Shown here: piece by piece, positions 3,660-4,443 of the stretch
How positions within the stretch are numbered: the first letter of the stretch is position 1
Layout of the letters: each line of letters starts with the position of its first letter
Virus record (IMG/VR): IMGVR_UViG_2698536355_000005
Reading direction: 5' to 3' (one strand)
DNA from: a virus
Lineage: Duplodnaviria > Heunggongvirae > Uroviricota > Caudoviricetes
Length of the DNA: 5,804 nucleotides
Translations under genes and position numbers: made by a program
Notes under the pieces: model-generated
What the model saw: only the letters and a program-made list of their open reading frames with translations
Told to the model about the DNA's origin: nothing
Database searches by the model: none

Positions 3660-3689
3660 TTGACGGCATTGAATTGCTTTTGTTATGAG
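3660..3689 (+). promoter_or_regulatory. Candidate sigma70 promoter for the downstream membrane-protein gene
   Basis: TTGACG (3660-3665), 18-bp spacer, extended -10-like TGtTATGAG (3681-3689). Sequence-pattern only. Confidence 0.3.
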
Positions 3690-3726
3690 TTGTAAGCCAA
3701 TGTTACCATCTTGTATTGGGGTGGTT

Positions 3727-4443
3727 ATGAAGGATGGTGCGCTGCTCAGGAGTTCTTCACTTTTTATTGCCTACATGGGATGCCTTGGATGGGGGAGTGC
3801 TTATTTCTATGGATGGGGTACTTCTTTTTACTACGGCTTCCCATGGTGGATTGTAGGTGCAGGTGTTGATGATGTTGCCAGAAGTTTATTTTTTGCAGTT
3901 ATCGTCATTGCTATATTTCTTATCGGTTGGGGTATTGGTGTTGTATTCTTTTTCGCAGTGAAAAGAAAACATTCTATGCAAGAGCTAAATGTATTTCGCC
4001 TTTATTTTGCTGTGGAATTATTGTTTGTGCCGGCAATTATTGAGTTTTCTATATTGAGACAGAAGATTCAGGTACCTCTTTTGCTACTGTCAGCAGCGAT
4101 TGCGCTGGCGGTTACAATTTCGATAAGATCTTATGGGCGATTTTTATCGGTATCATGCTTCTATGATAAGCCATTTATAAAAAAACATTTTTTTGAGATT
4201 GTGATGATTGCTTTTGTGGCATATTTCTGGCTTTTTTCATTTCTGACAGGATATTACAAACCACAGTTTAAGAAAGAATATGAAATGATTAATTATAATG
4301 ATGGTTGGTATTATGTTCTTGCTCGTTATGATAATTGTCTGGTTTTGTCTACTTCTTTCAATGCAGGTAGTAAAAGGTTTGTCATTTATCAATCAGCACA
4401 AGATAAGAATCTTCAGGTTGATATTGTAAGGACCAGAATTTAA
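3727..4443 (+). CDS. Uncharacterised multi-pass integral membrane protein (about 5 predicted TM helices plus ~60-aa C-terminal soluble domain); prophage moron
   Basis: Open frame 3685-4443 (track, 252 aa). Preferred start is ATG 3727 (MKDGALL...), preceded by GGGGTGG; ATG 3685 and 3700 lack an SD. Hydrophobic segments: LFIAYMGCLGWGSAYFYGWG; LFFAVIVIAIFLIGWGIGVVFFFAV; LYFAVELLFVPAIIEFSIL; VPLLLLSAAIALAVTISI; FFEIVMIAFVAYFWLFSFLTG. Strongly AT-rich with A/T-ending codons, unlike flanking Q and nanS. No family recognised by eye. Confidence 0.7.
   Translation: MKDGALLRSSSLFIAYMGCLGWGSAYFYGWGTSFYYGFPWWIVGAGVDDVARSLFFAVIVIAIFLIGWGIGVVFFFAVKRKHSMQELNVFRLYFAVELLFVPAIIEFSILRQKIQVPLLLLSAAIALAVTISIRSYGRFLSVSCFYDKPFIKKHFFEIVMIAFVAYFWLFSFLTGYYKPQFKKEYEMINYNDGWYYVLARYDNCLVLSTSFNAGSKRFVIYQSAQDKNLQVDIVRTRI

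Follow-up and report, generated by a model that had tools for sequence, protein, structure and literature searches.

What is encoded by the AT-rich open reading frame (ORF) that separates the antiterminator gene Q from the lysis genes in a lambdoid prophage, and whom does its product serve? We addressed this question for a 5,804-nt stretch of viral DNA (IMG/VR record IMGVR_UViG_2698536355_000005; this whole stretch is called the window here), which covers the nin-to-late region of such a prophage. An earlier sequence-only reading had described a multi-pass membrane protein and had offered superinfection exclusion, abortive infection and envelope modification as its roles, all of which are still conjecture. 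We find that the gene belongs to a small family that is already catalogued, and we are highly confident that it is optional cargo and that its product has the membrane architecture described below. Our preferred reading, to which we assign a probability of about 0.5, is that the protein is an inner-membrane envelope factor that benefits the lysogen and is carried as late-operon cargo.

The gene and its family

On the + strand, the target ORF extends from its first ATG at 3685 to 4443 (252 aa), with further in-frame starts at 3700 (247 aa) and 3727 (238 aa). Full-length homologues are nearly all 237-238 aa long and their N-termini align with the product of the start at 3727 (MKDGALL...). A purine-rich, Shine-Dalgarno-like GGGGTGG stands just before this start, where it aligns with GAGG/GGAG of diverged copies. 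Based on the lengths and starts of the homologues and the position of this site, the true coding sequence (CDS) is most likely 3727-4443. Thus the ORF of ~238-252 aa that had been proposed is real and 238 aa is its likely product, but the 252-aa version is not retained. The features of the gene are:

3660-3689, + strand: candidate sigma-70 promoter, TTGACG, 18-nt spacer, extended -10 TGt-TATGAG, read from the sequence
3718-3724, + strand: Shine-Dalgarno-like GGGGTGG for the start at 3727
3727-4443, + strand: probable CDS of an STM1630/TfpB-family inner-membrane protein, 238 aa (homologues, identity to phage 434, AlphaFold model and the ratio of non-synonymous to synonymous substitution rates, dN/dS)

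The window protein is 100% identical over 238 residues to CPT_434_68 of phage 434 (UMO75332.1, 'putative membrane protein'), and the counterpart gene of phage 2B8 is 98% identical to it at the protein level. RefSeq calls the 238-aa 434-type protein (WP_001299184.1 / WP_001302581.1), which tblastn likewise found to be 100% identical to the window protein, 'STM1630 family protein'. Salmonella STM1630 itself (P0075, beside sseJ) is 46% identical over its full length (E 1.3e-70). All 103 of 103 homologues carry the precomputed Pfam assignment PF27470 'TfpB', and PHROG 1521 (unknown function) is matched with E 2.1e-154, residues 31-252 of the 252-aa ORF aligning with profile positions 1-222 of 222. 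The Pfam-A and NCBIfam copies that we scanned gave no match for the target protein; they presumably do not hold the PF27470 and STM1630 models, so membership is taken from the annotation of homologues. The name TfpB may refer to the tfpB ORF of the Moraxella pilin inversion region. In the literature, TfpB, DUF3927/TciB, the WP accessions and CP0168 turned up only as unrelated uses of those strings.

The family is small, with 71 clusters found in a profile search of 1.84 billion cluster representatives, and many shortened copies are present in the databases. Close members occur in the Enterobacteriaceae (Escherichia, Shigella, Salmonella, Citrobacter, Cronobacter, Klebsiella, Enterobacter and Yersinia), and the distant members, 25-29% identical and all annotated as hypothetical, come only from Pasteurellaceae and Neisseria. 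These matches show that the gene is not new: the classic phage 434 has an identical one, and the product is a member of a small, named, uncharacterised family. The sequence-only reading had recognised no family; PF27470, the RefSeq family name, PHROG 1521 and the annotated 434 gene correct it on this point.

The dN/dS ratio was 0.05-0.20 in all eleven pairwise comparisons (57-98% identity), which indicates that the target is a protein-coding gene under purifying selection. Its length is kept at 237-238 aa across 45-100% identity and its motifs are invariant. The gene has a GC content of 36.3% (30.5% at third codon positions), compared with 50.0% for Q, 45.8% for the phosphatase gene and 57.0% for the downstream esterase gene. 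It is far more AT-rich than its flanks, as had been stated earlier, and family members are AT-rich in every context that we looked at (30-42% GC).

An optional gene in the Q-to-lysis slot

The gene is found between Q/pR' and the lysis genes in the orientation of late transcription. Its setting in the window is as follows:

2825-3448, + strand: lambda-type antiterminator Q, 207 aa (Pfam PF03589 Antiterm, E 4.3e-57), immediately upstream of the target
3491-3519, + strand: late promoter pR' with embedded qut, TTGACT-17-GAAACT (coordinates transferred from the HK542 annotation)
4529-4687, + strand: DUF3927 / TciB-like small membrane protein, 52 aa (Pfam PF13064, E 3.4e-14; PHROG 1470)
4698-4902, + strand: STnc100-like small RNA (sRNA) gene, probably PasD (Rfam RF02076, 41.3 bits, E 3.7e-7)
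4986-5804, + strand: 5' part of a NanS-p-type sialate O-acetylesterase gene (DUF1737-SASA), running off the window

Q shares 97-98% identity with its counterparts in phage 2B8 and in E. coli prophages, and 3452-3535 shares 90-92% with the pR'/qut segment of HK97, HK022, HK542 and mEp phages. The position that had been given for the gene, directly downstream of Q and a PR'-like promoter, is thereby borne out. The queried interval matched 104 phage records, about 100 of which share just the ~80-bp pR'/qut segment and then diverge; HK542, for example, passes from Q to the holin gene in 430 bp with no cargo between. The family is carried in three of 50,697 phage records (phage 434, plus 2B8 deposited twice). 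In phage 434B, which propagates and forms clear plaques, DLP12 sequence has replaced ~5.5 kb in which Q, the late promoter and the lysis region lie (PMC9119081). According to the GenBank annotation of 434, the target gene lies inside this region of non-homology. Since 434B grows without the region, the gene is dispensable for lytic growth.

When at least 80% of window positions 3449-4960 was required to be present, the segment was held by 682 of 5426 complete E. coli genomes. We then compared 80 IMG/VR loci that encode the identical protein. Upstream, 47 of them have a lambda-type Q and 32 have LpxR (on the opposite strand) with a Q82-like Q. Downstream, the DUF3927 gene is present in 79 and the SASA esterase gene in about a third, with the holin gene next. 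Among the diverged paralogues examined, none was found to have DUF3927 beside it, and this difference indicates that DUF3927 and the target are a lineage-specific pair. Homology to the 434 and O157 versions begins at window positions 3583 and 3566, respectively, inside the late leader, which indicates that the gene travels with ~150 bp of its own upstream sequence. The target gene, DUF3927 and the STnc100-like sRNA form a block that is joined to different Q modules in different prophages. Phage 434 has, like the window, the identical protein followed by DUF3927/TciB, the sRNA with its terminator, a SASA esterase and a class II holin. In 434 and O157:H7, however, a Q82-like antiterminator precedes the block, LpxR lies upstream and the terminator after the late promoter is intact, whereas in the window it follows an intact lambda-type Q and the terminator is degenerate.

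The general organisation of Stx (Shiga toxin) phages is established knowledge, and relatives of the gene fit into it. In Stx-phage-like prophages, a 68% paralogue follows Q (of the DUF1133 or PF06530 type), a methyltransferase and two tRNAs, and the same prophages continue with LpxR and PmrD (both on the opposite strand), NanS-p, DUF1378, DUF826 and holin. We take the position of this paralogue to be the place of stx on Stx phage maps, in agreement with the slot assigned earlier, and the paralogue stands between the tRNAs and the NanS-p esterase. The two tRNA genes (anticodons CAT and TTT) lie at 5708-5865 in L018-L020 (L-numbers label the individual homologue loci compared), after the methyltransferase gene and before the paralogue, and mirror the tRNA cluster upstream of stx in Stx phages. 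stx1 has been placed directly upstream of the esterase gene (bioRxiv 10.64898/2026.05.13.724894). The target resembles stx in lying in the Q-to-lysis interval, in being co-oriented with late transcription and in preceding a NanS-p esterase gene. Like stx, lambda bor/lom and HK97 gp15, it is optional cargo of deviant composition between conserved modules. Unlike these genes, to which it has no sequence or fold relation, it encodes a polytopic protein of the inner membrane, neither an outer-membrane protein nor a secreted toxin, and unlike classical lambdoid morons it has no terminator of its own after the CDS.

A member from Yersinia enterocolitica (45% identical) directly follows NinG and a PF06530-type Q. 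In E. coli and Yersinia together the family occurs behind four Q types, always co-oriented with late transcription. With its presence in 682 of 5426 genomes, this points to a recurrent resident of the slot and not a one-off. Comparison of the Q-to-lysis interval thus reveals a variable slot, the gene not being conserved in all related phages. The earlier proposal of a horizontally acquired moron agrees with the ~100 phages that share pR'/qut but not the gene, the viability of 434B and the deviant GC content.

The RF02076 (STnc100) match downstream spans the full length of the model; its score is below the gathering score of 47, which no family reached in the Rfam scan of the window. The sRNA ends in the sole clear intrinsic terminator of the interval (stem 4873-4891 plus a T-run). 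PasD, an Hfq-bound prophage sRNA related to STnc100, sits immediately upstream of the sialate esterase gene in 2B8 (bioRxiv 10.64898/2026.05.13.724894), and 4698-4902 very likely corresponds to it. The sRNA is overlapped by a 52-aa ORF (4744-4902) that the phage 434 annotation calls 'putative membrane protein' and that probably does not represent a protein. For the esterase, the matches are to the SASA family carbohydrate esterase encoded by phage 434 and by E. coli prophages.

Promoter, leader and terminators

The candidate promoter has its -35 element TTGACG at 3660-3665 and its -10 element at 3684-3689. A strict consensus promoter scan did not list it, the -10 hexamer ending in G. The pattern TTGAC[GT]-N18-[TA]AT[GT] recurs 67-70 nt before the start in copies that are 57-68% identical at the protein level, and is present in the 434, L025, L026, stx-slot, plasmid-borne heat-labile toxin (LT) and iro-island copies, the LT plasmids being those of enterotoxigenic E. 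coli (ETEC). Two of the conserved copies do not belong to a phage operon, and this favours a promoter that is real but weak. The earlier suggestion that the gene has its own promoter thus gains from the conservation of the pattern in diverged copies and loses from the strict scan.

At the junction in phage 434 (L001:4982-5007), the late promoter is followed by an intact hairpin terminator, AACCCGCUGCCGAGUGGGUU and then a U-run. The corresponding window sequence, AACCTGCCGCCGAGTAGTTTTT, is unable to form the 434 hairpin. The terminator scan found no terminator-like site between pR' and the gene, and the leader (3526-3730) showed no significant RNA structure (z -1.08). None lies directly after the CDS, the first clear terminator 3' of it being that at 4873-4891, beyond DUF3927 and the sRNA. 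As no terminator is recognisable between pR' and the gene, pR' transcripts may extend, even in the absence of Q, across the target gene, DUF3927 and the sRNA. If this read-through holds, the sRNA would be the 3' end of a long late-leader transcript.

Architecture and predicted topology

A first AlphaFold model, built from close homologues only, was poor, with a predicted local distance difference test (pLDDT) score of 58.9. A second model from 51 sequences, including members just 12-29% identical, was confident (pLDDT 80.7, predicted template modelling score 0.74). Together with the Kyte-Doolittle profile it places helices at residues 10-36, 47-79, 84-111, 116-137 and 155-181, and it adds a five-stranded beta domain across residues 184-235, the soluble C-terminal part measuring ~55-60 aa. 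The two methods agree with the about five hydrophobic helices and ~60-aa soluble C-terminal tail described earlier. The family alignments share an N-terminal motif, GW.SAY.YGWG..(F/Y)YG.PWW, seen as the highly conserved aromatic/glycine belt GWGSAYFYGWGxSFYYGFPWW.

Averaged over the 51 sequences, the lysine plus arginine counts are 1.9 for the N terminus, 2.7 for loop 2 and 3.2 for loop 4 (together 7.8), compared with 0.9 for loop 1 and 0.8 for loop 3 (together 1.7). By the positive-inside rule, the N terminus is predicted to be cytoplasmic, with the C-terminal domain and the aromatic belt facing the periplasm. A profile search of Protein Data Bank sequences returned chance matches only (E above 4), a Foldseek search of BFVD found nothing at E 0.001 or better, and the fold searches as a whole revealed no structural similarity to any solved or viral protein. 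Profile searches and structure prediction, which the sequence-only reading had suggested as a check, therefore yielded no relative of known function by fold or sequence.

Homes outside phages and virulence neighbours

In three S. enterica subspecies (enterica, diarizonae and arizonae), STM1630 (L005) has sseJ on one side and frmR-adh-MCP on the other. Identity among the orthologues, which are fixed and syntenic, is 89-91%, with a synonymous divergence (dS) of 0.6-0.8 and a dN/dS of 0.05-0.07. STM1630 shares with the target its length, the five helices plus beta domain and the AT-rich composition. It differs in being a fixed chromosomal gene beside sseJ with its own mapped promoter and no DUF3927 or sRNA partner. 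A member in Citrobacter rodentium occupies the same locus, where lpxR replaces sseJ. On ETEC plasmids (L006-L009), a 59% paralogue divergently adjoins eltAB with insertion sequence elements on the flanks, and 17 plasmids carry this type at at least 99% identity. The Shigella invasion plasmid pINV carries a 57% paralogue, CP0168 of pCP301 (L111:7001-7717), between virA and spa40; 106 of 156 matching plasmid records are from Shigella. A further paralogue is found beside iroBCD and bor in the iro island (L014-L017). The paralogues are consistently associated with AT-rich virulence loci.

lpxR lies ~0.2-1.4 kb from a family member in three gene orders and orientations (the 434/O157 type, the stx-slot type and Citrobacter), both proteins being 66-75% diverged. 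The pmrD gene is adjacent in the stx-slot version (L018-L020) and was called as a gene in L019 and L020. A scan of genome contigs gave 5 loci only, too few for linkage statistics. The lpxR genes near family members are:

L001:2810-3769, lpxR
L012:5863-6823, lpxR
L018:7972-8919, lpxR
L013:3831-4790, lpxR

In Salmonella, STM1630 is among the genes co-regulated with Salmonella pathogenicity island 2 (SPI-2) in virulence-regulator mutants (PMC2639726). It has its own mapped -10 box, was chosen from RNA-seq data for macrophage infection work and is silenced by two promoter single nucleotide polymorphisms (SNPs) in S. Typhimurium ST313 (bioRxiv 10.1101/689075). Down-regulation in D23580 inside macrophages has also been reported (bioRxiv 10.1101/450098).

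What the protein may do

These data are consistent with the reading given at the outset, a lysogen-benefiting envelope factor of the inner membrane carried as late-operon cargo. The envelope and host-adaptation part, which we put forward with moderate confidence, draws on the retention of chromosomal copies under selection, the co-regulation with virulence genes, the restriction to animal-associated bacteria and the LpxR, PmrD, Bor, toxin and effector neighbours. We suggest that the gene would be expressed in the lysogen from its weak promoter (TTGACG-18-TGtTATGAG) and, in the lambda-Q version, by a second route, read-through from pR'. After induction, Q-modified polymerase would raise expression along with the late genes, as for stx, and continue into the genes for the esterase and for lysis. 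Starting from a cytoplasmic N terminus, the protein would cross the membrane five times. Its aromatic/glycine belt and small beta domain could then bind an envelope component at the periplasmic face, a change in envelope properties that would favour a host-associated bacterium and not virion production.

Several points weigh against this proposal. No biochemical or phenotypic function is confirmed for any family member. Deletion of STM1630 did not reduce intramacrophage replication (bioRxiv 10.1101/689075), and although the deletion was hypermotile in a high-throughput screen (PMC4219756), a clean deletion did not belong to the 7 mutants, of 24, whose motility was altered (PMC4534456). The linkage to LpxR, PmrD, toxin and effector genes may just reflect common residence in AT-rich horizontally acquired regions, and the constant co-orientation with late transcription could mean a role in lytic growth. 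The -10 hexamer is poor and the promoter was missing from the strict scan. The predicted topology derives from the positive-inside rule only.

The main rival is superinfection exclusion or abortive infection, in which an inner-membrane protein of the lysogen blocks the entry of phage DNA or kills infected cells, on the model of P22 SieA, HK97 gp15, T4 Imm and lambda RexB. P22 SieA, lambda RexB and T4 Imm are products of phage accessory genes, made in lysogens, and are small-to-medium proteins of the inner membrane. The target is similar in kind: it encodes a polytopic protein of the inner membrane, occupies an accessory slot of a prophage and has a plausible promoter. It is AT-rich and mobile among phages, plasmids and islands, like many defence genes, and PHROG describes the neighbouring DUF3927 as TciB-like, 'inhibition of cell division or resistance to colicin'. 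The resemblance is one of kind only: PADLOC returned 0 families at E up to 0.1, and neither Pfam nor the fold searches gave homology to SieA, RexB or Imm, or any similarity to solved or viral proteins. In addition, and unlike these proteins, the STM1630/TfpB family is also fixed in virulence loci outside phages. Its orthologues have been kept stably at one S. enterica chromosomal locus with the dS and dN/dS noted above, and co-regulation with SPI-2 virulence genes is unusual for exclusion genes. The scarcity of the family among phage records also speaks against a defence role, which we consider unlikely.

Less probable is a dedicated partner of virulence cargo, which would control the latent outer-membrane lipid A deacylase LpxR or aid the release of AB5 toxins. 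The three lpxR arrangements, the PmrD gene adjacent in L018-L020, the divergent paralogue beside eltAB on ETEC plasmids and the stx slot all speak for such a partnership. However, 47 of the 80 identical-protein loci, and the window itself, have no LpxR nearby, and the Salmonella, Shigella pINV and iro-island copies have other neighbours. It is not obvious how a protein of the inner membrane would regulate an outer-membrane enzyme, and linkage statistics ignore the shared ancestry of prophages. A wider version of this idea has in our estimate the same small chance. The family would be a pathogen-restricted inner-membrane factor with an unseen fold that is a functional partner of the co-mobilised LpxR, PmrD, Bor, eltAB, stx-slot, sseJ and pINV genes, acting for example in the release of LpxR from latency or in vesicle or toxin release; in the window it would be made constitutively from a pR' leader transcript that yields PasD at its 3' end.

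A late phage function, such as holin timing, envelope disruption or release of the contents, with the protein made only from Q-antiterminated pR' transcripts, appears slightly more doubtful still. The gene is co-oriented with late transcription in every phage context seen and stands between Q and holin behind four Q families, including that in Yersinia. In the O157:H7 version, only DUF3927, the sRNA region and an opposite-strand hypothetical ORF intervene between the family gene and holin. Against this, 434B, HK542 and ~100 other lambdoid phages lyse without the gene. Intact, selected copies persist without nearby lysis genes in Salmonella, Citrobacter, ETEC plasmids and Shigella pINV. Because of these copies, and because Pfam gave no holin, spanin or endolysin match, identification as a holin or lysis protein was rejected.

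Finally, the lack of a confirmed phenotype, the SNP silencing of STM1630 in ST313 and the many shortened database copies could suggest a decaying, non-functional hitch-hiker, an AT-rich remnant in a recombination hotspot; this is very improbable, a pseudogene being rejected on dN/dS (0.05-0.20) and the conserved length of 237-238 aa, and the invariant motifs and a co-evolution signal strong enough for a confident AlphaFold model also disfavour it.

Other features of the window

The best matches over the whole region are prophages of human STEC-type (Shiga toxin-producing) E. coli strains. No tRNA genes were found within the window. A free-standing HNH endonuclease gene with an AP2-like domain is inserted upstream of ninG:

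758-1405, + strand: HNH endonuclease (PHROG 99, E 5e-73)

It is followed by NinG, NinH, the Ser/Thr phosphatase and Q, identified from Pfam matches, and then by the target ORF, DUF3927 and the 5' part of the esterase. The HNH gene lies inside an AT-rich stretch that it shares with a (TATTTC)x8.8 microsatellite at 592-644. The listed ninG ORF starts at a TTG (1320) and overlaps the HNH gene; this start is probably too far upstream. At the left end of the window, the best full matches begin only at base 105, and a query that includes the first ~104 bases matches 74,051 places, spread over 5057 of 5426 E. coli genomes. It is therefore probable that the window starts inside the end of a multicopy insertion sequence.

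Significance

The finding re-identifies a catalogued orphan family; the element is not of a new kind. Pathogenic E. coli commonly carry the gene, and the late-operon slot that it occupies is the same as that which gives Shiga toxin its induction-dependent expression. Its relatives adjoin classic virulence determinants, namely the LT toxin, SseJ, LpxR, salmochelin and the Shigella invasion plasmid. The function of the family, once found, would fill a recurrent gap in the maps of prophages and virulence plasmids.

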